A DNA stretch of 64,000 bases from an uncultured Bacillota bacterium (GCA_947426945.1 CANEFX010000001.1:13238-77237), one strand, 5' to 3'. Positions 10,149-62,200 are shown, counted from the first letter of the stretch. A program made the numbers and translations. Notes: generated by a model not told the origin, from the sequence alone.

Positions 10149-12725
10149 ATGGCCGAAAGCAAATTCTTTGACTACGCAACGGGCAAAGAAGTTCGGAGCA
10201 ATCCCGAGGAAGAATATCGGCAGTTGTTTGAACACATCCTTATTGATGATTTAGGCTATCCGAAAGAGAATATTGATATTGAAGTTGTTTTGCAACGTGG
10301 TGCAGCCCGAAATGCTGAAAGGGCTGATATTGTTGTTTATAACGACAGTATACATAAACAAGAAAATGCATACATTGTCATTGAAATTGAAACACCAAAA
10401 AAGAAATATGACCTTCAGGCCTTTTCATATGTTACAGCAACGACCGCACCTTATTGTGTTTGGTTTGCAGGTTTTGAAAAAAACAGCGAAGGACCATATT
10501 ACCATTATAGGGATTTAAAAACGGCCCCCACAAAATTCAATCTTATTCCAACTTTGCCACGTTACGGTGAGAGTCAAGAAACAATTGGATTATATCGTAA
10601 ACAAGACTTAAAGCCTGCAAAAGCCCTTAAACTTCTGTTTACAAGGATGTATTATCATCTTTACGGAAATGGGCCCATAAAGCGCGAAGAAAACATAGCA
10701 ATAGAAGTTATCAAACTTCTGTTCTGCAAAATTATGGATGAAATAAACCCGGATGAACTTTGTGAATTCCGAGCAACGCCTTCTGAATTAAATTCTGATG
10801 GGGGTAAAAAAGCTATTAGGCAGCGCATCAACAAACTTTATGCGATGCTTCTGAAAGACCCGGATTTTGGAACGATGTTTAAGGGTGAAACAATCGAATA
10901 TGATAATAACTGGGTAGCATACATTGTTTCTGAATTGCAAGGTGTGGCTTTGATGCATGAAGATACGAATACAGATGCTTTGGGTGATGCATATGAGATA
11001 TTACTTCCGTCTACTTTGAAAGGTGAAAGCGGACAATTCTTTACCCCACGTGAAATTGTTCGTTTCGCTATAGATGTCATCAACCCACAGTATAAGAGCG
11101 GTGAGTTGATATTAGATACAGCATGCGGCTCTGGAGGATTTCTTTCTATCGCAATAGAGAAGTTGCGCAAGCAGATTGATGTACTGTATAGATCAAGAAA
11201 CTTTTCAAAAGATAAATTAAATTCCCTACTTAAAGATTACGCTGACAAATATATTTTTGGGTGTGATATTGATCCGCTTTTGTATAGAATATCAAAATCA
11301 TACATGGCTATAGTTGGGGATGGGAAGAGCAATATATATAACTTTGATTCATTAGAGCCGTATCCTGAATTGAATGAGCGTTTCAAGAAAAGAATCAAAC
11401 CTGGTTCGGTGGATGTTATTACTACGAATCCACCTTTTGGCACACATATAAAGGACACAAGAAAAGAGGTTCTTGAGCAATATGAATTAGGGCATAAACT
11501 TTCTAATGGTTTACCTACTGCAGAATTGTTGGATGGTCAAGATCCCGATAAACTATTTGTAGAAAGAGATATTCTGTATCTTAAGGAGGCTATTGACGAA
11601 AAAGAGGGCGGCAGAATGGTTATTGTTCTGCCTAAACAGAACCTTTCCGGTGCGCAAGAAGAATCAGTAGAATTTAGAAACTGGTTAATGCGGAAGGTTC
11701 AAATAATAGCTATTGTTGATTTGCCTCGAGAAGCATTTCAACCGCACACCGGAACAAAAACTTCACTTGTATTTCTAAAGAAAGTAAAAGTTATACCTGA
11801 GAACTATCCTATTTTTATGGCAGTATCAGAGGCAGTTGGACACGACAGGCGGGGCAATCCTTTATATAAAAAAGATGCAAGTGGAATGAATCTTCTTGAC
11901 GAAGATAAAAACCCTGTGATATGGAATGATTTGCCCGAAATTTTAGAGCAATGGAACCGTTATGTTTTAAGACAGACTGTGAAGCAGGCAGATGAAAGCG
12001 ACGGACATGCGCCAAGTTGCTTTGTTATAGAGTCAAAGCAAATTCTTGACGATCCATCAAGGCGTATTGATGCATGGTATTGGGATCCAAATAAGAACAC
12101 CCTTGCAAAACAGATTGAAGAGTCTGTGGGTGGTGATATTCAAGAAATCGTGCGTTTAGGGGATTTAGTTGTAGAACATGGTATTTTCTATCCAGGCCGT
12201 CATAAGCGGAACTATATTGATCCCGGAAAAGACAGCATTCCATTTTATTCGGGAACACAGATTCTTCAAATTCGTCCGTTTGATTTGCAATATCAACCGA
12301 GAGATTACTCGCCTGCGGCAAAGCACTTTGTTGAGAAGAATTGGATTCTAATAACTCGTTCCGGCTCAACAGGGCGCGTTGTTATGGTTACTGACAGTAT
12401 GTCCGGAGCAATGGTGACAGAACATGTTATCCGAGTCATTTGTGATGAAACAATAGTTGACCCATACTATGTGTATGCTTATTTGGCGACAGATAACATA
12501 GGAAAAGTGTTGCTTGAAAAAGGAATATATGCTTCAGTAGTTGACCACATCACACCTGACTTTGTCGCAACCATTCCTATTCCACGCCTGTCCCCTGAGA
12601 GAGAAAAGGCAATAGCAGATAAAGTTCGAGAATCTGAACGCAAAAGAGATGAGGCAAACAAAGCCTTTCTTGAAGAACGGGCAGCGATCGAAAGCATAAT
12701 GTTTTCCAATATGAAAACGGATTAA
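10149..12725 (+). CDS. Fused R-M polypeptide: HsdR-N-like nuclease-fold domain + gamma-class N6-adenine DNA methyltransferase + single HsdS-type TRD (Type IIG/IIB-like)
   Basis: 858-aa ORF. SAM motif ILDTACGSGGFL (~nt 11110) and catalytic NPPFG (nt 11427-11441). The N-terminus (...RADIVVYND...YIVIEIETPKK) resembles the type I HsdR N-terminal PD-(D/E)xK fold. The last ~200 aa look like an HsdS target-recognition domain plus conserved helix. AT-rich, with A/T-ending codons unlike all neighbours. Confidence 0.8.
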   Translation: MAESKFFDYATGKEVRSNPEEEYRQLFEHILIDDLGYPKENIDIEVVLQRGAARNAERADIVVYNDSIHKQENAYIVIEIETPKKKYDLQAFSYVTATTAPYCVWFAGFEKNSEGPYYHYRDLKTAPTKFNLIPTLPRYGESQETIGLYRKQDLKPAKALKLLFTRMYYHLYGNGPIKREENIAIEVIKLLFCKIMDEINPDELCEFRATPSELNSDGGKKAIRQRINKLYAMLLKDPDFGTMFKGETIEYDNNWVAYIVSELQGVALMHEDTNTDALGDAYEILLPSTLKGESGQFFTPREIVRFAIDVINPQYKSGELILDTACGSGGFLSIAIEKLRKQIDVLYRSRNFSKDKLNSLLKDYADKYIFGCDIDPLLYRISKSYMAIVGDGKSNIYNFDSLEPYPELNERFKKRIKPGSVDVITTNPPFGTHIKDTRKEVLEQYELGHKLSNGLPTAELLDGQDPDKLFVERDILYLKEAIDEKEGGRMVIVLPKQNLSGAQEESVEFRNWLMRKVQIIAIVDLPREAFQPHTGTKTSLVFLKKVKVIPENYPIFMAVSEAVGHDRRGNPLYKKDASGMNLLDEDKNPVIWNDLPEILEQWNRYVLRQTVKQADESDGHAPSCFVIESKQILDDPSRRIDAWYWDPNKNTLAKQIEESVGGDIQEIVRLGDLVVEHGIFYPGRHKRNYIDPGKDSIPFYSGTQILQIRPFDLQYQPRDYSPAAKHFVEKNWILITRSGSTGRVVMVTDSMSGAMVTEHVIRVICDETIVDPYYVYAYLATDNIGKVLLEKGIYASVVDHITPDFVATIPIPRLSPEREKAIADKVRESERKRDEANKAFLEERAAIESIMFSNMKTD

Positions 12726-25725: not shown

Positions 25726-26940
25726 TTATTCGTCGGTGGGAGCCTTTTTCAGTAATTTTTGGTAGGTGCGGTCCATCCCCAGTGCCCCGAGGGGTGCGGT
25801 AATCAGAATCGCCGCCACGGCTACAGACAGCACCAGTTTTCCGCAGGGCAGGCCCATTGCCAGAGGCACCGAGCCGATGGCCGCCTGAACGGTAGCCTTG
25901 GGCAAATAGGCGATGATGCAGAACAGCCGCTCTTTTCGATTGAGAACTGTTCCCGCTGTTGCCAGCAGGACCCCCAGGGCCCGGACGGCCAGGGCGGCAA
26001 AGATGATGATCACCGCTTTCCCTCCGGCTTCCAGGGTATAGCGGATATCCACTGCGGCCCCCACTAAAACGAAGAGAACTACCTCCGCTGCCAGCCACAG
26101 CTTGCCAAATTTCTGGGACAGCCGGGCAGACACCGGGGCAGGGCATTTGAGACGCAGTCCGCAGGCCATAGCTGTTACCGCCAGGATGCCGGAGAAGGGA
26201 ACCTGTTCTTTCATCCAGCCCTCCACCGCCAGCAGGAGGAAGGCGGTCCCCAGAATTGAAATGACCTTTATGCTGTTTCGGATATGGGCCTGACGGGCAA
26301 AGCGGGCCTCGAAGAACCGGGCCATTAACCGCCCGGCGGTCAGCCCAAAGGCAATTCCCAACAGAATCGACACAGGGATCCCGGCAAAATCGGAGATTTT
26401 GGGTCTGCCCCCCTGAGCCATGCTGGAAAAGGTGGAAAACAGAACTATTACGTATATGTCGTCCATAGAGGCTCCGGCCAGGATCATCTGCGGAATGCTT
26501 TTTTCGGTTCCCCAGCCCGTCTCGATCAAATTGACCATCCGGGGAACTACCACCGCCGGGGATACTGCCCCCAGCACCGCGCCCATAACGGCTCCCTCGA
26601 TCCAATTTACGCCGAAAATGGCGGGAGCCAGCAGGGTATAGGACAGGATTTCAAAGGTGGCAGGCAGGCATGTCATCAGCAGGGCGGGCCTGCCCACCTT
26701 CTTCAAATCTCCCAGGTTCAGGGATAGTCCCGCCTTGATCAGGATGATCACGAGTGCCAGTTGCCGCAGATCCGGGGAAACAGAGAGGATTTTTGGATCC
26801 AGCCAGTTGAGCGCGTAAGGCCCGATCAGGATGCCCGCCAAAAGCATCCCTACGATACGGGGCAGTCCCGCCGCTTGACACAGTGCGGCGGCGGCCAGTC
26901 CGATCAAAAACACAAAAGCCAGAGAAGTCAGCATATCCAT
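25726..26940 (-). CDS. Cation:proton antiporter (Na+/H+ exchanger family)
   Basis: Polytopic membrane protein with CPA-type motifs (LLAGILIGP...). The start is uncertain: ATGs at 27015, 26940 and 26934, and the RBS favours the last two. Confidence 0.8.
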   Translation of the reverse strand: MDMLTSLAFVFLIGLAAAALCQAAGLPRIVGMLLAGILIGPYALNWLDPKILSVSPDLRQLALVIILIKAGLSLNLGDLKKVGRPALLMTCLPATFEILSYTLLAPAIFGVNWIEGAVMGAVLGAVSPAVVVPRMVNLIETGWGTEKSIPQMILAGASMDDIYVIVLFSTFSSMAQGGRPKISDFAGIPVSILLGIAFGLTAGRLMARFFEARFARQAHIRNSIKVISILGTAFLLLAVEGWMKEQVPFSGILAVTAMACGLRLKCPAPVSARLSQKFGKLWLAAEVVLFVLVGAAVDIRYTLEAGGKAVIIIFAALAVRALGVLLATAGTVLNRKERLFCIIAYLPKATVQAAIGSVPLAMGLPCGKLVLSVAVAAILITAPLGALGMDRTYQKLLKKAPTDE

Positions 26941-27147
26941 TCTCCTTTTCAGCAGAACCGCAACAAAAAAGCCGACAACTCCGCGATAAATCGCAGAAGT
27001 CATCAGCTCTTGCAAGCGGTTTCGGTTTCCCGAGGGAGCACTTCATTCCCTTGAAACCATATTATAGCCGGAGCCTCGGAAAAGTCAAGTCCTTTTTGAA
27101 GTTCACACTTCTGAAAGCATACATTGAAACCGAAAGGAATGATACCC

Positions 27148-50403: not shown

Positions 50404-50685
50404 ATGAGAAAAGAACTGTGGCAGCTGCTGACGGCATATATTCTGGCGGTTAATCTGGCCGCCTTTATACTGATGGGGGCGGACAAACGCCGGGCCCGGA
50501 ACGGGGCGCGGCGGCTTTCCGAACGAACTTTATTTCTCCCGGCGGTGCTGGGCGGGGCGCTGGGCGGGACGTTTGGGATGCATATTTTTCATCACAAGAC
50601 CCGGCACTGGTATTTCCGTTTCGGCTTTCCCCTTCTGCTTCTCGCACAGATATTGGGGATATGCCGGCTGGCCACAGGTATTTGA
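50404..50685 (+). CDS. DUF1294 membrane protein
   Basis: ...FILMGADKRRARNGARRLSERTLFLPAVLGGALGGTFGMHIFHHKTRH is the DUF1294 signature. The start is uncertain (GTG 50317 is an alternative). Confidence 0.7.
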   Translation: MRKELWQLLTAYILAVNLAAFILMGADKRRARNGARRLSERTLFLPAVLGGALGGTFGMHIFHHKTRHWYFRFGFPLLLLAQILGICRLATGI

Positions 50686-50801
50686 CGCGCGGAGCAGAAG
50701 AAAGGCGCCGCGTGAGGGCACGCTGAGATTTTTGCGGGTGACAGAACGCCGTACCCAGGCGGGGGTGGGCAGTGGAATGGAAGCAGCTGGAGGTGACGAA
50801 G

Positions 50802-53426
50802 ATGGGACGGCCGGACCGGCGGATTTGTTTGGGCCTGCTGGCCCACGTGGACGCGGGAAAAACAACCCTGTCCGAGGGGATTTTATACCTCAGCGGCGCG
50901 GTGCGCAGGCTGGGGAGGGTGGACCACCGGGACGCCTTTCTGGATACCGATATTCAGGAGCGGGAGCGGGGTATTACCATTTTTTCCAAGCAGGCGGAGC
51001 TTATCTGGGGAGATACCGCCTTCACCCTGCTGGACACCCCGGGGCATGTGGACTTCTCCGCCGAGATGGAGCGCACCCTTTCGGTGCTGGACTGCGCTGT
51101 GCTGGTAATCAGCGGCTCCGACGGTGTCCAGAGCCACACCCGCACCCTGTGGCGGCTGCTGGAGAGGCATGCTATCCCAACCTTCTTCTTTGTCAACAAG
51201 ATGGATCTGGAGGGGACGGACCGCTCCGCCCTGCTGAATCAGCTGCGAGACAAACTGGACGGGGGCTGTCTGGATTTTACCGCCGGACTGCTCCCCCTTC
51301 AGGAGGATTTGGCCTCTCTGGACGAGGAGCTGATGGACCGGTATTTAGAGGGGGGCGGGGTCACGCCGGAGGATGCCGCCTCCCTGATTGCCCGGCGGAT
51401 GGTTTTTCCCTGCTTCTTTGGCTCGGCGCTGAAGCTGGAGGGGGTGGAGGCGCTACTGGACGGCCTGTCCCAATACGCGCGCCCCTCTGGCCGTCTGCCG
51501 GAGTTTGGGGCCAGGGTATTCAAGATTGCCCGGGACGGAAACGACAGGCTCACCTATTTGAAGGTTACCGGCGGTGCGCTGAAGGTCCGGACTCTGCTGG
51601 GGGAAGAGAAGATCAACCAGATTCGAATTTACTCCGGGACCAAATACCAGACTGCGGACGAGGTTCCTGCCGGAACGGTGTGCGCGCTCACCGGCTTGAC
51701 CAAGACCCGGCCGGGGGATGTGTTCGGGGCGGAGCCCCCCGCCCGGGAGCCCGAGCTGGAGCCGGTGCTGAACTATCAGGTGATCCTGCCCCCTGCCTGC
51801 GACGTCCACGCCATGCTGCGCAGTCTCCGCCAGCTGGAGGAGGAGGACCCCCAGCTCCGGGTGGTGTGGAACGAGGCTCTGGGGGAAATTCACCTTCAGC
51901 TTATGGGAGAGATCCAGTTGGAGGTGCTCACCCGGCTGATTCGGGAGCGCTTTGGGACGGAGGTCTCCTTCGGGGCGGGGAGCATTGTCTACCGGGAGAC
52001 CATTGCCAGCGCCGTGGAGGGTGTGGGCCACTTTGAGCCCCTGCGGCATTACGCCGAGGTCCATCTTCTGCTGGAACCCGGCCCCCGGGGCAGCGGGCTG
52101 CGCATTGCCTCTGCCTGTCCTACCGACCAGCTGGACCTGAACTGGCAGCGGCTGATTTTTACTCACCTGATGGAAAAACGACACCGGGGAGTGCTCACCG
52201 GGTCGCCCATCACCGACATAAAGATCACGCTGGTAGCCGGCCGGGCCCATGTGAAGCACACCGAGGGGGGAGACTTCCGGCAGGCCACCTATCGGGCGGT
52301 GCGCCAGGGGCTGATGCAGGCCAAGAGCGTCCTGCTGGAGCCCCACTACAATTTTACGCTGGAGCTTTCCCCTGACTGCGTGGGACGGGCCATGAACGAT
52401 CTCCAGTCCATGGGCGGCAGCGTGGAGGGGCCCGAGCAGGAGGGGGAGTTTGCTCTCCTCACCGGTCATGCCCCGGTGGCTGGCCTGCGGGACTACTGGA
52501 GGGAGGTCACCGCCTATACCCGGGGACGGGGACGGTTGTCCTGCGCCCTCCGGGGCTACGAGCCCTGTGCCAATCAGGAGGAGATCGCTGCCCGTTTTGC
52601 CTACGACCCGGAGCGGGATGTGGAAAACCCGCCCGACTCGGTGTTCTGCTCCCACGGGGCGGGAGTCGTTGTAAAGTGGGACCAGGTCAGGGAGCACATG
52701 CATGTGGACAGCGGTCTGCGGCTGGGACCGGCGCGCCCGAATGCGGAGCCGGCCGTCCCTGCCGGAGGACGACGCTCCTGTCAGGGCGGCAGCCTGGAAC
52801 AGGATAAGGAGCTGCTGGCCGTCTTTGAGCGCACCTACGGCAGGGTGGACCGGGATACGGCCTTTCAGCCCCGGAAAAAACCCGCTCGCACCGGCCTGGA
52901 CGAAGGGAAATACGCCATTCAAAATCAGAAAACCGGTTTAGAGTATCTGCTGGTGGACGGGTACAACATTATCTTTGCCTGGGACGAGCTGAAAGAGCTG
53001 GCCCGGCAGGATGTGTCCGCCGCCCGGGCGGCACTGGAGGATATTTTGTCCAACTACCAGGGATTTCGCAAGTGTGTGGTGATTTTGGTGTTCGACGCCT
53101 ACAAGGTGAAGGGCAATCCCGGCTCGGTAGAGAAGAAAGACAACATCTATGTGGTCTACACCAGGGAGGCGGAGACGGCCGACGCTTATATTGAAAAGGC
53201 CACCTACGACCTGGGGCGGGACCACCGGGTCCGGGTGGTCACCTCCGACGGTTTGGAGCAGCTCATTATCCTGGGCCACGGAGCCCTGCGGCTATCCGCC
53301 CGGTCCTTCAAGGCGGAGGTGGAGCAGGCCCAGGGGGAGATTGCAGCATTGGTGGCCGGGCTTAACCGGCGGAATACCGGGGACCGGAAGCTGAAGAACA
53401 CCGCGCGGATCATCAGGGAAGCATAG
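50802..53426 (+). CDS. EF-G/TetM-like translational GTPase fused to a C-terminal YacP/Rae1-type NYN ribonuclease domain
   Basis: G1 AHVDAGKTT, G2 RGITI, G3 DTPGH, G4 NKMD, with collinear EF-G-like domains II-V. The last 162 aa (nt 52938-53426) carry LLVDGYN..AW, VVILVFDA, ETADAYIEK, VVTSDGLEQ and GALRLSARSF, as in B. subtilis Rae1. GGAGGTGA RBS. Confidence 0.85.
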   Translation: MGRPDRRICLGLLAHVDAGKTTLSEGILYLSGAVRRLGRVDHRDAFLDTDIQERERGITIFSKQAELIWGDTAFTLLDTPGHVDFSAEMERTLSVLDCAVLVISGSDGVQSHTRTLWRLLERHAIPTFFFVNKMDLEGTDRSALLNQLRDKLDGGCLDFTAGLLPLQEDLASLDEELMDRYLEGGGVTPEDAASLIARRMVFPCFFGSALKLEGVEALLDGLSQYARPSGRLPEFGARVFKIARDGNDRLTYLKVTGGALKVRTLLGEEKINQIRIYSGTKYQTADEVPAGTVCALTGLTKTRPGDVFGAEPPAREPELEPVLNYQVILPPACDVHAMLRSLRQLEEEDPQLRVVWNEALGEIHLQLMGEIQLEVLTRLIRERFGTEVSFGAGSIVYRETIASAVEGVGHFEPLRHYAEVHLLLEPGPRGSGLRIASACPTDQLDLNWQRLIFTHLMEKRHRGVLTGSPITDIKITLVAGRAHVKHTEGGDFRQATYRAVRQGLMQAKSVLLEPHYNFTLELSPDCVGRAMNDLQSMGGSVEGPEQEGEFALLTGHAPVAGLRDYWREVTAYTRGRGRLSCALRGYEPCANQEEIAARFAYDPERDVENPPDSVFCSHGAGVVVKWDQVREHMHVDSGLRLGPARPNAEPAVPAGGRRSCQGGSLEQDKELLAVFERTYGRVDRDTAFQPRKKPARTGLDEGKYAIQNQKTGLEYLLVDGYNIIFAWDELKELARQDVSAARAALEDILSNYQGFRKCVVILVFDAYKVKGNPGSVEKKDNIYVVYTREAETADAYIEKATYDLGRDHRVRVVTSDGLEQLIILGHGALRLSARSFKAEVEQAQGEIAALVAGLNRRNTGDRKLKNTARIIREA

Positions 53427-55131: not shown

Positions 55132-55232
55132 AGCGTGCATCTGAAAGAAAATCAACTGTTTTCCTGCAGGGCCAAAGCTCCTTTGGAAAAGAGGACCTTT
55201 TTCGGCCAACAAATCCGTCCGAGGTGACCTCC

Positions 55233-57206
55233 ATGCCCAAATTTGAAGTGGTATCCGAATATACCCCCAGCGGCGATCAGCCGGAGGCCATTGAGGCCCT
55301 GGCCAATGGTATTGAGATGGGGCTGGATGAGCAGACCCTGCTGGGTGTCACCGGCTCGGGCAAGACCTTTACCATGGCTAAGATTATTGAGAAGGTCCAG
55401 CGGCCCACCTTGGTGCTGGCCCACAACAAGACCCTGGCCGCCCAGCTGTGCGCCGAGTTCAAGGAGTTTTTTCCTAACAACGCGGTGGAGTATTTTGTGT
55501 CCTACTACGACTACTACCAGCCCGAGGCCTATATCCCCCACACCGACACTTTCATTGAAAAGGACTCCTCCGTCAACGAGGAGATCGACCGGCTGCGCCT
55601 GTCCGCCACCGCCTCCCTGCTGGAGCGGCGGGATGTAATTGTGGTGTCGTCGGTGTCCTGCATCTACGGCCTGGGCGAGCCGGAGGATTTTGCCAAGATG
55701 ATGGTCTCCCTTCGGGTGGGCGCCCAAATGGAACGGGACGAGATGCTGAAGAAGCTGGTGGCCATCCGCTATGAGCGCAACGACATCGCCTTTGAGCGCA
55801 ACATGTTCCGGGTGCGGGGGGACACAGTGGAGGTCTGGCCTGCCTACTGGAAGGATACCGCCATCCGGGTGGAGTTCTTCGGGGATGAGATTGAGCGCAT
55901 CTCCGAGATTAACGTGGTGACGGGCTCTCCTATCCGCCGTCTTCAGAATATCCCCATCTGGCCCGCCACTCACTACGTCACCCCCAAGGAGAAGATGGAC
56001 GCCGCCATTCAGGAGATTTATCAGGAGATGGAGGAGCGGGTGGCCTTTTTCGAAGGGGAAAACAAGCTGATTGAGGCCCAGCGCATCAAGCAGCGCACCA
56101 TGTACGACGTTGAGATGATGCAGGAGCTGGGGTACTGCTCCGGCATTGAGAATTACTCCCGGGTTATTGAAGGCCGGCCGGTAGGATCGCCCCCCAATAC
56201 CCTGATGGACTATTTCCCCAGGGACTTTGTGCTGTTTATCGACGAGAGCCACGTCACCCTGCCCCAGGTTCGGGCCATGTACAACGGCGACCGGGCCCGA
56301 AAGACCACTCTAGTGGAGTATGGTTTCCGCCTGCCCTGCGCTTTCGATAACCGGCCCCTGAAGTTTGAGGAGTTTGAAAAGCGGGTCAACCAGATTGTCT
56401 ACGTCTCCGCCACTCCGGGGGAGTATGAACGCACTCGGTCGGGGCAGATTGTGGAGCAGGTCATCCGACCCACCGGCCTGCTGGACCCGGTGATTGAGGT
56501 GAGGCCGGTGGAGGGGCAGATCGACGACCTGATCGGCGAGATCAACACCCGCACCGCCCGGAACGAGCGGGTATTGGTGACCACCCTCACCAAGCGGATG
56601 GCCGAGGACCTGACCACCTATCTCCAGGGGGCGGGGATCAAGGTGCGGTATATGCATCACGACATCGACGCCATGGAGCGGATGGAGATTATCCGGGACC
56701 TGCGGCTGGGCACTTTCCACGTGCTGGTGGGCATCAACCTGCTGCGGGAGGGCCTGGACCTGCCCGAGGTGTCCCTTGTCGCCATTCTGGACGCGGATAA
56801 GGAGGGCTTCCTGCGCAGTGAGACCTCTCTTATCCAGACCATCGGCCGGGCCGCCCGAAATGCCCAGGGCATGGTGGTCATGTACGCCGACACGGTGACC
56901 CCCTCCATGCGCCGGGCCATTGACGAGACCGAACGCCGCCGGGAGAAGCAGGACGCCTTCAACCGGGCCCACGGCATTGTGCCCAGGACGGTGATCAAAT
57001 CGGTGCGTAACCTGCTGGACCTGGACGCCCAGGAGGACAAGAGCTCCGCTGAGCGCCGGGGCGAGGTCCAGGGTCTTACCAAGCAGCAGAAGGCCGAGCG
57101 CATCGCCCGGCTGGAAAAAGAGATGCGGGAGGCCGCCAAAATGCTGGAGTTCGAGCTGGCCGCCGCCCTGCGGGACCAGATTATCGAACTGCGGGGGAAA
57201 CCGTGA
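55233..57206 (+). CDS. uvrB: Excinuclease ABC subunit B
   Basis: [20 protein letters not shown]..., Walker A GVTGSGKT, helicase motifs and C-terminal UVR domain (...[15 protein letters not shown]). Confidence 0.97.
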
Positions 57207-57625
57207 TGGCTGTGTGGATATTGTTCGCGTTTCTGTCTGCAGTGTTTGCGGCCCTCACCTCTATCTTGGCCAAGATAGGTATTGATGGGGTGAACTCCAC
57301 GCTGGCCACCGCCGTCCGCACGGCAGTGGTGCTGGTGATGGCCTGGGGGATGGTCTTTCTCACGGGCAAGGCGGGGGATATTTCCCATATCGCCGGGCGG
57401 AGCTGGCTGTTTTTGATCCTGTCCGGCCTCGCCACCGGGGCCTCCTGGCTGTGCTATTACTACGCTCTCCAGCAAGGTCCGGCCAGTAAGGTGATTCCCA
57501 TCGACAAGCTCAGCGTGGTGATCTCGCTGGCGCTGGCCTTCCTGGTGCTCCATGAAAAAGCAGACGTGAAAACGGTGATCGGCGGCCTGCTCATCACGGC
57601 GGGTACACTGGTGATGGTGCTGTGA
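57206..57625 (+). CDS. EamA-like (DMT superfamily) small transporter
   Basis: ~139 aa with four TM helices. TGATG overlap with the uvrB stop. Confidence 0.75.
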   Translation: MAVWILFAFLSAVFAALTSILAKIGIDGVNSTLATAVRTAVVLVMAWGMVFLTGKAGDISHIAGRSWLFLILSGLATGASWLCYYYALQQGPASKVIPIDKLSVVISLALAFLVLHEKADVKTVIGGLLITAGTLVMVL

Positions 57626-57636
57626 GGGAATTGGAT

Positions 57637-58116
57637 ATGGCAAAAAAAGAGGAAAAGACCAACGTCATGCGGGTTTTGGAGCAGAAAAATATTTCCTATA
57701 TCCCGCACGCCTACGACCCGGAGGCGGGTCTGGACGGGGTGAGCGTGGCGAAGCAATTGGGCCAGGACCCGGAGGCGGTGTTCAAGACGCTGGTGGCCCG
57801 GGGGGCCTCCGGAGAGCTGTATGTATTTGATATCCCGGTGGAGGACAACCTGGATTTAAAAAAAGCCGCCAAGGCGGTGGGGGAGAAGTCCGTCGCCATG
57901 ATTCACCAGAAGGAGCTGCTGCCCCTGACGGGCTACGTCCACGGGGGCTGTTCTCCAGTGGGGATGAAGAAGCAGTATCCCACCGTCTTTCACGAGACGG
58001 CGGAAATCCTGGATACCATAATGGTGTCCGCGGGGAAAATTGGGTTTCAGGTGGAGCTGGAGCCCTCCGCCCTGATCGCGCTGGTGGGCGGGACAACCGC
58101 TGATTTAGCTGTTTAA
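57637..58116 (+). CDS. ybaK: YbaK/EbsC-type Cys-tRNA(Pro) deacylase
   Basis: 159 aa. ...TNVMRVLEQKNI.Y..H.Y... and ...GYVHGGCSPVGMKK are YbaK signatures. Confidence 0.85.
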   Translation: MAKKEEKTNVMRVLEQKNISYIPHAYDPEAGLDGVSVAKQLGQDPEAVFKTLVARGASGELYVFDIPVEDNLDLKKAAKAVGEKSVAMIHQKELLPLTGYVHGGCSPVGMKKQYPTVFHETAEILDTIMVSAGKIGFQVELEPSALIALVGGTTADLAV

Positions 58117-58128
58117 GGAGGAAACAAT

Positions 58129-58911
58129 ATGGCGAGCAGCCCTGATTTTGTCAACTATATCTGCGAGCAGCTGGAGGGCCTGGGGGCGGTGCGCTCCCGA
58201 AAGATGTTCGGGGAGTATATGGTCTATCTCAACGACAAGCCGGTGATCATCATCTGCGACGACCGGCCTATGGTAAAGATGCTGCCCTGCCTGGAGGTGC
58301 TTTTGAAGGGCCGTCCCACCGAGCCGCCCTATGAGGGGGCCAAGGACCACTACCTGCTGGACCCGGACGACCGGGATACCCTCCGGGAGGCTGTCCGGCT
58401 GGCCGAGGAGGTTATCCCCCTGCCCAAGAAGAAGGCCCCGAAAAAGAAGGAGCCCGCCAAGGCGGAGGGCCCGGTTCCTTGGGACGTCGCCTGGCCCCAG
58501 CAGATGAGGCCGAGCCTGTCCGATATCGGGGCCTGGGTGAACAACCCCCTCCTGGAGGAGCTCGCGGACTGGATGAAGGAGACATATCAGGTGGAGCCCT
58601 CCATCGAGTTCAGCAAGTGCTCCCTGGATAAGGGGTGGAATATCAAATATAAGAAGGGGAGCAAGTCCCTGTGCGTGCTGTATGTCCGGTCCGGGTCCTT
58701 TGCCGCCATGGTGACCCTGGGGGCAAAACAGCTGCTGGAGCTGGAGCCTCTTTTGCCTACCTTCTCCGCAGCTTTCCGCAAAATGTATCAAAATACCTCC
58801 CTGTTCAACGGCGGCAAATGGCTGACAGTGGATGTGAAAAAGCCGAAGCAGCTGGAGGAGGTCCAGAGGCTGATTCTGATGAAGGCGAAGCCGGTGAAAA
58901 ACAGGCCTTGA
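58129..58911 (+). CDS. TfoX N-terminal domain protein fused to a DUF3788-like domain
   Basis: The N-terminus FVNYICEQLEGLGAVRSRKMFGEYMVYLNDKPV is TfoX_N-like. A Lys/Pro-rich linker follows. The C-terminal ~130 aa resemble DUF3788. Confidence 0.65.
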   Translation: MASSPDFVNYICEQLEGLGAVRSRKMFGEYMVYLNDKPVIIICDDRPMVKMLPCLEVLLKGRPTEPPYEGAKDHYLLDPDDRDTLREAVRLAEEVIPLPKKKAPKKKEPAKAEGPVPWDVAWPQQMRPSLSDIGAWVNNPLLEELADWMKETYQVEPSIEFSKCSLDKGWNIKYKKGSKSLCVLYVRSGSFAAMVTLGAKQLLELEPLLPTFSAAFRKMYQNTSLFNGGKWLTVDVKKPKQLEEVQRLILMKAKPVKNRP

Positions 58912-58939
58912 CATTAAAAATTTATTCCGTTAGGCTGTA

Positions 58940-58959
58940 GGGGCGGCCTGTGGCCGCCC
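58940..58959. repeat. GC-rich palindromic element, copy 2
   Basis: GGGGCGGCC-TGT-GGCCGCCC, identical core to 19437-19457. Intergenic. Confidence 0.7.
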
Positions 58960-58978
58960 GTCTGGGAGGCGCAGCATT

Positions 58979-59341
58979 ATGGCGTTCATGGCTCTGTTCG
59001 GCTGGATATTTCTCCTGATGATTCCGGCCTTTTATATCGGTATGGCCCTGGAGGCGGTCCTGGCCTGGGCCGCGGCCCACGTCCTTCTGGTCAATGTGAT
59101 GCTGGTCCTTCTGCTGGCGCCGAATGGGCTGATCCTTTGGGTCCTGCTGAAAATCCGGGCAAAATGGAAGCGGGAAGGGAAGCTGAAGGCGTCCTATGCC
59201 AGGCGGGACCCGACTTTGAAAGGTTTTTTGGGACGTTTCACCCTGTTTTGCGGGCTGGCCTGGGAGTTTTTTGCCGTCATTGCCTTTCTGGCCCTTTTGA
59301 TTTTTCAGCCTATCCCCCGTTTGGCGGGTATGCTGCTGTAA
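58979..59341 (+). CDS. Hypothetical membrane protein (120 aa)
   Basis: Three to four predicted TM helices. No family recognised. Confidence 0.5.
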
Positions 59342-59374
59342 ACTCGATATTTGCGTACAAGGAGAACAACTGTT

Positions 59375-62200
<2,826 letters not shown>

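Follow-up and report, generated by a model that had tools for sequence, protein, structure and literature searches.

Anatomy of a clostridial protein family that joins an EF-G/TetM-like GTPase to a Rae1-type nuclease

Introduction

Rae1 (YacP) of Bacillus subtilis is a translation-dependent endonuclease that cuts mRNA at stalled or collided ribosomes and thereby feeds rescue by transfer-messenger RNA (tmRNA) (PMC12407103, PMC13622287), and a September 2026 preprint describes tmRNA substrates generated by Rae1 from collided ribosomes (PMC13622287). No structure of ribosome-bound Rae1 exists, its binding being transient (PMC13622287). The cut site was revised in 2025 to a position 12 nucleotides (nt) upstream, at the tail of stalled ribosomes, and the premise of cleavage in the A site was withdrawn by its own authors. 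Fusions of a TetM-like GTPase with an NYN_YacP domain have been recorded in Clostridia by Atkinson 2015 (PMC4342817) and Matelska 2017 (PMC5499597), both of which noted the architecture only ('ten species', 'some Clostridia'). In this study, we analyzed such a fusion gene in a 64,000-nt stretch of DNA (hereafter the window) from an uncultured Bacillota bacterium (GCA_947426945.1 CANEFX010000001.1:13238-77237).

The encoded protein belongs to this recorded family, being one polypeptide in which an EF-G/Tet-like GTPase is followed by an NYN_YacP domain, in Clostridia. It shares both architecture and taxonomic group with the members known in RefSeq as 'translation factor GTPase family protein', and nothing essential differs. 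The initial annotation of the window, made from the sequence alone, was aware of no experimental characterization of such a protein. Full-text literature searches aimed at the fusion or at Rae1 also found no experimental study of it, the architecture itself having been on record since the two surveys above. The family is documented but uncharacterized, and far larger than the literature says (at least 143 clusters). What is added here is its anatomy, namely a conserved extension of the GTPase, a tether, a helix motif and the missing tail of Rae1.

A single gene encodes both halves

The fusion gene is a single open reading frame (ORF) of 874 codons plus a stop codon on the plus strand (window 50802-53426; open frame 50772/50802-53426), uninterrupted as the initial annotation had described it and preceded by a good ribosome-binding site. 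Residue 1 corresponds to the ATG at 50802, and all coordinates are those of the window:

50789..50795, + strand: Shine-Dalgarno-like GGAGGTG, read from the sequence, 6 nt before the ATG at 50802
50802..53426, + strand: whole fusion gene; the same architecture is found in 120 close and 120 more distant database proteins

We scanned one genome per GTDB species, obtaining at least 600 pattern matches, and analyzed the best 80 loci (L001-L080). In 79 of these 80 species-level loci, a single open frame without interruption covers both the GTPase and the NYN part, as it does in hundreds of database proteins, and sequence conserved in the family spans the junction region. The sole locus with the two parts in different frames (L007, 8001-10640) may represent a sequencing error in a metagenome-assembled genome (MAG) or a pseudogene. 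Thus, the suspicion that two separate genes might have been joined here was not borne out by related genomes, and the locus is a single gene, a true covalent fusion of an EF-G/TetM-like GTPase and a Rae1-type nuclease.

Family size and distribution

In a homologue search against 1.84 billion representatives at 50% identity, the best 150 matches extend down to 42% identity and 665 bits. Among them, 143 are at least 830 aa long, most being matched from about residue 6 to about residue 850, so that the architecture is common to at least 143 clusters at 50% identity. The protein database yields 120 clusters of identical Pfam architecture that are 76-88% identical to the window protein, and the few named ones belong to Lawsonibacter.

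The survey of phyletic spread that had been proposed for this architecture points mainly to Oscillospiraceae and Lachnospiraceae. The best 80 loci include Oscillospiraceae (Lawsonibacter, Flavonifractor, Intestinimonas, Dysosmobacter, Faecalibacterium and Ruminococcus), Lachnospiraceae (Blautia, Dorea, Roseburia, Acetatifactor, Herbinix and others), Acutalibacteraceae and one Peptostreptococcaceae MAG. The closest relative among these loci is a Lawsonibacter MAG protein (84% identity); members from Flavonifractor, Faecalibacterium, Blautia, Roseburia and other genera are 54-65% identical to the window protein, and the Monoglobus member is 60% identical over the GTPase part. Annotated isolates carrying the fusion include Monoglobus pectinilyticus ('translation factor GTPase family protein') and Agathobacter rectalis (named as TetM-family).

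Domain organization and conservation

The statements of invariance below are based on an alignment (A1) of 55 relatives at 39-60% identity, and the identities given for each region are mean pairwise values. The gene is organized as follows:

50802..51491, + strand: G domain, residues 1-230; Pfam GTP_EFTU at residues 8-226 (E 4.7e-48); 44% identity
51492..51755, + strand: domain II, residues 231-318; EF-G_D2 at 236-308 is weak (23.8 bits, cut-off 27), with a beta-barrel in the AlphaFold2 model and Foldseek matches to EF-G; 39% identity
51756..51977, + strand: domain III, residues 319-392; Pfam EFG_III at 321-391 (E 4.7e-9); 32% identity
51978..52325, + strand: domain IV, residues 393-508; Pfam EFG_IV at 394-508; the most conserved region, with the highest identity (54%)
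52326..52556, + strand: domain V, residues 509-585; Pfam EFG_C at 510-592 (E 3.4e-17); 34% identity
52557..52727, + strand: family-specific C-terminal extension of the GTPase, residues 586-642 (about 55 aa); conserved, with a predicted local distance difference test (pLDDT) score of 73-89; 44% identity over 586-636
52728..52934, + strand: disordered tether, residues 643-711 (about 70 aa); pLDDT below 50; 8.5% identity in the first linker (637-664) and 10.6% in the second (683-713)
52794..52847, + strand: conserved helix motif within the tether, residues 665-682, D-x-EL-x-x-IFERTYGP; predicted helix; 31% identity versus about 10% in the flanking linkers
52935..53372, + strand: Rae1/YacP-type NYN endonuclease domain with its helical extension, residues 712-857; Pfam NYN_YacP; catalytic D719, D765, D794 and D816; 43% identity (NYN)
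53373..53426, + strand: short variable C-terminal tail and stop codon, without the (F/L)Ex(W/I)RRG of free-standing Rae1

The collinear EF-G/TetM domains proposed at first are found by Pfam in the expected order (GTP_EFTU, EF-G_D2 (weak), EFG_III, EFG_IV and EFG_C), and all GTPase motifs that had been quoted are present. These are G1 (AHVDAGKT, within AHVDAGKTT at 14-22), G2 (RGITI at 56-60, with T59), G3 (DTPGH at 78-82, with H82) and G4 (NKMD at 132-135), to which G5 (GSALK) can be added, and their core is invariant in the 55 relatives. The G' insert is very short, with 55 aa compared with 71 in TetM and 105 in EF-G. Invariant positions in the GTPase are A14, V16, D17, G19, K20, T21, T59, D78-T-P-G-H82, K133, D135 and G207, with G407, G409, H410, E412, P413 and L414 at the domain IV tip, plus D491. 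In the extension, S613 and G619 are invariant, and in the nuclease D719, Y721, N722, D765, T787, D794 and D816. With G1-G4 including His82 and the four NYN aspartates conserved, both halves of the protein are apparently active and under selection.

An AlphaFold2 model built with 99 sequences has a pLDDT of 80.7, and the GTPase domains, the extension and the NYN domain are confidently predicted. The region between the two enzymatic parts, which had been taken for a Pro/Arg/Gly-rich linker, turned out not to be uniform: residues 643-711 are indeed disordered, with the helix motif at 665-682 embedded in them, and residues 586-642 form a conserved structured extension. In the model, this extension consists of a helix (592-599), a beta-hairpin (613-624) and a short helix, and its consensus is GYxxCHNxxEVIxxxxYDPExDxxNPxxSVFCxHGAGxxVPWxEVxxxMH. 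Searches of region 586-715 against PDB and Pfam gave no match beyond about residue 599. The C-terminus of TetB(P) from C. perfringens (L084), KKTTYDPLNKKE, aligns with the start of the extension (YDPExD) at window residues 586-610, and this alignment hints that the extension began in a Tet-like ancestor.

The stretch 636-716 is present in all 55 relatives with a length of 60-109 aa. Its linkers are at random-level identity yet always present, so that, judging from the alignment, the tether is kept in presence and free in sequence. The helix within it has a pLDDT of about 40 in the full-length model and of 53-70 when the C-terminal part is modelled alone.

The nuclease half and free-standing Rae1

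The assignment of the last ~160 aa to the Rae1/YacP type was confirmed. NYN_YacP (PF05991) matches residues 716-864 with an E value of 2e-47 (161.7 bits versus a cut-off of 24.6; profile positions 1-153 of 166), and the nuclease part matches B. subtilis Rae1/YacP (PDB 5mq8/5mq9) with an E value of 9e-23 at 44% identity. When a predicted model of residues 652-874 was searched with Foldseek, 5mq9/5mq8 were the sole significant matches (E 4e-12, root-mean-square deviation 1.5-2.7 Å, template modelling score 0.71-0.79 on the target), the next match having an E value of 0.01. The Rae1 motifs quoted in the initial annotation are present as LLVDGYN (716-722), LVFDA (762-766), ETADAYIEK (791-799), VTSDGLEQ (813-820) and GALRLSAR (827-834). 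The DGYN motif (D719-G-Y-N) and the four aspartates, the catalytic acidic residues of Rae1, are kept across the family, and D719 and D794 are the counterparts, by alignment, of D7 and D81 in Rae1, the two residues changed in its published catalytic double mutant D7N D81N (PMC10351889).

Besides this identity, these residues, the helical extension and the predicted fold, which the two proteins share, there are clear differences. B. subtilis Rae1 is a free protein of 170 aa that is encoded directly after rlmB and has a tail ending in FEKWRRG, whereas in the fusion the NYN domain forms the C-terminal end of an 874-aa GTPase, its coding sequence lies elsewhere and this tail is missing. With its domain fused, its locus not after rlmB and its tail motif absent, the fusion is not a free-standing Rae1 orthologue in the strict sense. 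A C-terminal tail of 48-51 aa ending in (F/L)Ex(W/I)RRG was found in all six free Rae1 proteins compared; the motif is matched by four of the 143 fusion representatives, and the window protein lacks it. The Rae1 crystal form 5mq9 is a W164L mutant within this tail motif. We also considered whether the tether motif (EL..IFERTYG) is a displaced Rae1 tail (EVL..FEKWRRG); hhalign aligns the two, but with an E value of 0.24 and a probability of 0.3%, and this relationship is not supported.

A free NYN_YacP gene lies directly downstream of rlmB in every PLSDB record that holds one (records from ten genera), those named being Bacillus (three species), Listeria, Staphylococcus, Latilactobacillus, Aerococcus, Paenibacillus, Clostridioides and Acetoanaerobium. 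In M. pectinilyticus, Vescimonas fastidiosa and Subdoligranulum variabile, the NYN profile finds nothing in the slot after rlmB, all positive controls being recovered. In M. pectinilyticus a TIGR00282 phosphoesterase gene follows rlmB, and the fusion lies on another record of the same strain; in V. fastidiosa (L100, 5731-7887) a 718-aa hypothetical protein without Pfam match is encoded directly after rlmB. No second NYN gene was found in the window or in the 80 loci, and the genes around nusG show no synteny in A. rectalis or Monoglobus. Because the rlmB slot is empty in organisms of the fusion clade and the Rae1 tail motif is missing, the fusion probably stands in for free Rae1 in these Clostridia. 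The comparison suggests that the GTPase half took over a job of the lost Rae1 tail.

The GTPase half and its relatives

The N-terminal half is a translational GTPase of the EF-G/EF2 type, with G1-G5 including the catalytic His after DxxG, five collinear domains (domain II being below the Pfam cut-off) and a predicted EF-G fold. Foldseek matches the full model to structures of EF-G, EF-G2 and mitochondrial EF-G2 with E values of about 1e-52. No equivalog assignment to EF-G follows from its scores, which reach 286.6 bits with TIGR00484 (cut-off 659.4). The best NCBIfam model is tet_protect NF012153, at 394.8 bits about half the cut-off of 775, and the TetM/W/O/S model gives 264.7 bits against a cut-off of 1100. 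Over residues 1-585, identity is 29% to Tet(M)/Tet(O), 32% to TetB(P) and 27-28% to EF-G; Tet(M) and TetB(P) are 39% identical to each other.

Domain IV sets the family apart. Its tip carries the family-specific motifs GVGHFEPLRHYAEV (407-420) and RAH483-V-K485-H486-TEGGDFR, and an invariant EPLRHYAEV stands in place of GGRGQYGH in EF-G and VPPNPFWAS in TetM. Residues Y506-Y507-S508-P509-V510 of TetM align with A482-H483-V484-K485-H486, the TetM loop YSPVS being replaced by H-x-K-H-T. Pro509 of TetM is located in the tetracycline site at C1054 (PMC8161019), and the residue opposite it in the fusion, Lys485, is invariant in the 15 family members compared. H483 is the retained counterpart of His584 in E. 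coli EF-G (initiator Met counted).

Taken with the Tet proteins, the fusion has in common a collinear five-domain EF-G-like GTPase, a shortened G' insert and an extension after domain V, and differs in its overall sequence, in the replaced Pro509 loop, in its 55-aa extension, which is unrelated in sequence, and in not being carried on mobile elements. With EF-G (fusA) and EF-G2 it shares the fold, intact GTPase motifs and the His584 counterpart, and it differs from them in its low identity, in scores below the equivalog cut-offs, in the replaced GGRGQYGH, in a far shorter G' and in the attached nuclease. By these sequence comparisons, the family forms a branch of its own within the EF-G superfamily and carries a putative A-site probe that is specific to it and under strong constraint.

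The Prokaryotic Genome Annotation Pipeline (PGAP)/RefSeq label 'TetM/TetW/TetO/TetS family tetracycline resistance ribosomal protection protein' is attached to some members, including A. rectalis WP_306784676.1 (L089, 3631-6432), P0284, P0297 and P0384. The members so labelled score at about half the NCBIfam cut-off and are without the Pro509 of TetM.

Genomic context

The fusion gene is placed between a gene for a small DUF1294 membrane protein and a ComF-like phosphoribosyltransferase gene, in ordinary chromosomal housekeeping surroundings. Upstream neighbours also include genes for PrmA, an aldehyde dehydrogenase and pyruvate phosphate dikinase (PPDK, opposite strand), and downstream of the ComF-like gene are those for RadC, UvrB, a YbaK-like editing protein and UvrA. 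The DUF1294 gene (50404-50685, +) ends 116 nt upstream of the fusion gene on the same strand, and the two may be co-transcribed; a weak terminator-like hairpin (50710-50723) lies between them. Apart from this hairpin, the region near the fusion gene gave no leader or riboswitch in Rfam.

De novo clustering of ORFs within 5 kb found no neighbour in more than 12 of the 80 loci, and the window's own neighbours are not conserved either (PPDK in six loci, the others in 0-2, DUF1294 in none). It appears that the fusion gene stands alone. An ORF for an ABC-F-type ATPase occurs within 5 kb in 11 of the 80 loci, on either side and either strand (e.g., L076, 2414-4399). This association is weak; the ABC-F family includes translation factors, and the link may or may not be meaningful. 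In A. rectalis (L089, 2967-3475), a divergent BrnT toxin/CopG antitoxin pair is located immediately upstream of the fusion gene.

Several features elsewhere in the window were also observed:

26987..27059, - strand: fluoride riboswitch RF01734 (44.1 bits, gathering threshold 34), directly upstream of an ORF of the Na+/H+ exchanger family (25726-27015, -)
10149..12725, + strand: ORF of 858 aa with N6_Mtase and HSDR_N_2, which looks like a restriction-modification methylase
55224..62200: uvrB and uvrA, split by the YbaK-like editing-domain ORF and a TfoX_N+DUF3788 ORF

Discussion

The most economical reading of these data is a role at stalled ribosomes. We give about an even chance to the proposal that the protein docks through its GTPase on ribosomes that have stalled or collided and that the tethered nuclease cuts the exposed mRNA. 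The EF-G-like, GTP-dependent module would bind the 70S ribosome at its factor site, would extend domain IV into the A site, and would take over ribosome recognition from free Rae1; the Rae1-type NYN nuclease would be carried along on its flexible tether of 60-109 residues. Since domain IV itself would fill the A site, the tethered nuclease could not work in the A site of the same ribosome and would act outside it, its most likely target being mRNA that is accessible either at a stalled ribosome's edge or between two that have collided. The truncated message would then be cleared by trans-translation, as with free Rae1 in B. subtilis. In this scheme we infer ribosome binding, the part played by the GTP cycle (loading, licensing or release), the RNA substrate and the position of cleavage.

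The collided ribosome of B. subtilis disomes has been seen in the rotated state (PMC10897456). Such a ribosome would be a natural substrate of an EF-G-like factor, and a factor bound there would hold the nuclease near the mRNA entry of that ribosome, which would also be the 5' edge of the stalled ribosome, where Rae1 cuts. The idea of an RNase delivered to (possibly stalled) ribosomes by a GTPase, put forward in the initial annotation, is likely to hold, with the catalytic residues of both halves intact. Its mechanistic basis, cleavage by Rae1 in the A site, has to be given up, the premise having been withdrawn and the site being one that domain IV would occupy.

Tentatively, the GTPase half may be a built-in sensor of stalled or collided ribosomes, which would replace the recognition mode of free Rae1 itself and make the cut GTP-gated. 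The module would bind either a stalled ribosome with a vacant A site or, in a collision, the trailing ribosome, which is rotated and untranslocatable; a single NYN cut at the ribosome boundary would be timed or licensed by the binding and hydrolysis of GTP, and tmRNA would finish the rescue. A parallel is provided by Hbs1-Dom34, in which a translational GTPase delivers a factor to the stalled A site. SmrB of E. coli and Cue2 of yeast, which also cleave mRNA endonucleolytically at stalled or collided ribosomes (PMC12407103, PMC13622287), resemble the proposed outcome as functional analogues only: their nucleases have the SMR fold, unrelated to NYN, whereas in the fusion GTPase and nuclease form one polypeptide.

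Several points weigh against a role at stalled ribosomes. Support for every step is computational, AlphaFold2 does not place the nuclease confidently with respect to the GTPase, and the geometry is conjecture because the way in which free Rae1 binds the ribosome is itself open (PMC13622287). The 80 loci have no conserved gene neighbourhood that would point to a pathway. The absence of free rae1 is limited to the canonical locus and to partial genome records, and replacement may not be strict, since the Peptostreptococcaceae MAG (L022) has the fusion and C. difficile, of the same family, has free Rae1. Moreover, the substrate of the NYN domain could be rRNA or tRNA and not mRNA.

We consider this last alternative unlikely. 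The GTPase would then dock on ribosomes that are immature or idle, with the NYN domain either processing pre-rRNA or serving to inactivate or recycle ribosomes. A similar logic is found in the maturation of the eukaryotic 40S subunit, in which the GTPase eIF5B assists the PIN nuclease Nob1. The first prediction for YacP was a role in rRNA/tRNA maturation, based on the grouping of free rae1 with mrnC and rlmB (PMC5499597), an arrangement that was seen here too; a GTPase at the factor site would bring a tethered nuclease near rRNA as well as mRNA, and the present data do not separate these candidate substrates. However, the fusion gene has no linkage to rRNA-processing genes in the 80 loci, and the strongly conserved domain IV tip suggests that a functional A site on mature 70S ribosomes is probed.

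It is improbable that the fusion is a toxin of the stress, dormancy or defence type, which on a trigger such as phage, starvation or sporulation would stop translation by broad cutting of RNA on ribosomes. Ribosome-dependent RNases are common among toxins. It has been speculated that Rae1 could act against phage mRNA (PMC13622287), and the A. rectalis gene adjoins the BrnT/CopG pair described above. Against this, PADLOC gave no match for the fusion protein or the two adjacent ones, neither an immunity or antitoxin partner nor a conserved neighbour was found, and the context is one of housekeeping genes. The gene has the appearance of a conserved chromosomal gene in single copy, not of a patchily distributed island gene, with a GC content similar to that of surrounding genes. 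We rejected a defence system, and the defence function that had been suggested for this locus has no support.

A tetracycline ribosomal protection protein of the TetM/TetO type with an extra RNase domain, as implied by some RefSeq annotations and by speculation in Atkinson 2015, is very improbable. Its case consists of tet_protect being the best NCBIfam model, the collinear alignment with TetM/TetO, an identity slightly nearer to TetB(P) than to EF-G, and the PGAP names. It is outweighed by a score at about half the cut-off, by the invariant Lys at the Pro509 position within a replaced YSPVS loop, and by an identity to TetM far under that between TetM and TetB(P). In addition, this is a chromosomal gene in variable housekeeping contexts, whose identity to the window protein drops roughly with taxonomy (Oscillospiraceae highest, Lachnospiraceae lower). 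We rejected this assignment on account of the NCBIfam score, the loop residues in domain IV and the housekeeping context. Finally, an artificial joining of two adjacent genes by misassembly or a frameshift, for which L007 and otherwise only a general possibility can be cited, was rejected as having virtually no chance of being correct, since the continuous frame in 79 of 80 independent species genomes and the conserved junction already refute it at the level of sequence comparison.

Significance of the fusion

The existence of these fusions is no surprise given the surveys of 2015 and 2017. They are timely as a handle on how Rae1-type nucleases engage the ribosome: how Rae1 recognizes stalled or collided ribosomes is an open question, and a natural weld of nuclease and GTPase offers a direct experimental approach to it, as non-hydrolysable GTP or mutation of the catalytic His can probably lock the GTPase on ribosomes. 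If the GTPase half is indeed a sensor of stalled ribosomes, the family would provide bacteria with a GTP-gated nuclease for no-go decay and would offer a natural trap of a Rae1-type nuclease on ribosomes for structural work (with GDPNP or a His82 mutant).

The TetM-family labels on members of the family are almost certainly wrong, and they are a likely source of false resistance-gene calls in gut metagenomes and of inflated counts. The family is present in genomes of Faecalibacterium, Roseburia, Blautia, Agathobacter, Flavonifractor and Ruminococcus. These genera rank among the most abundant Firmicutes in the human gut, and the fusion may therefore be the main mRNA-cleaving ribosome-rescue factor of these gut Firmicutes.

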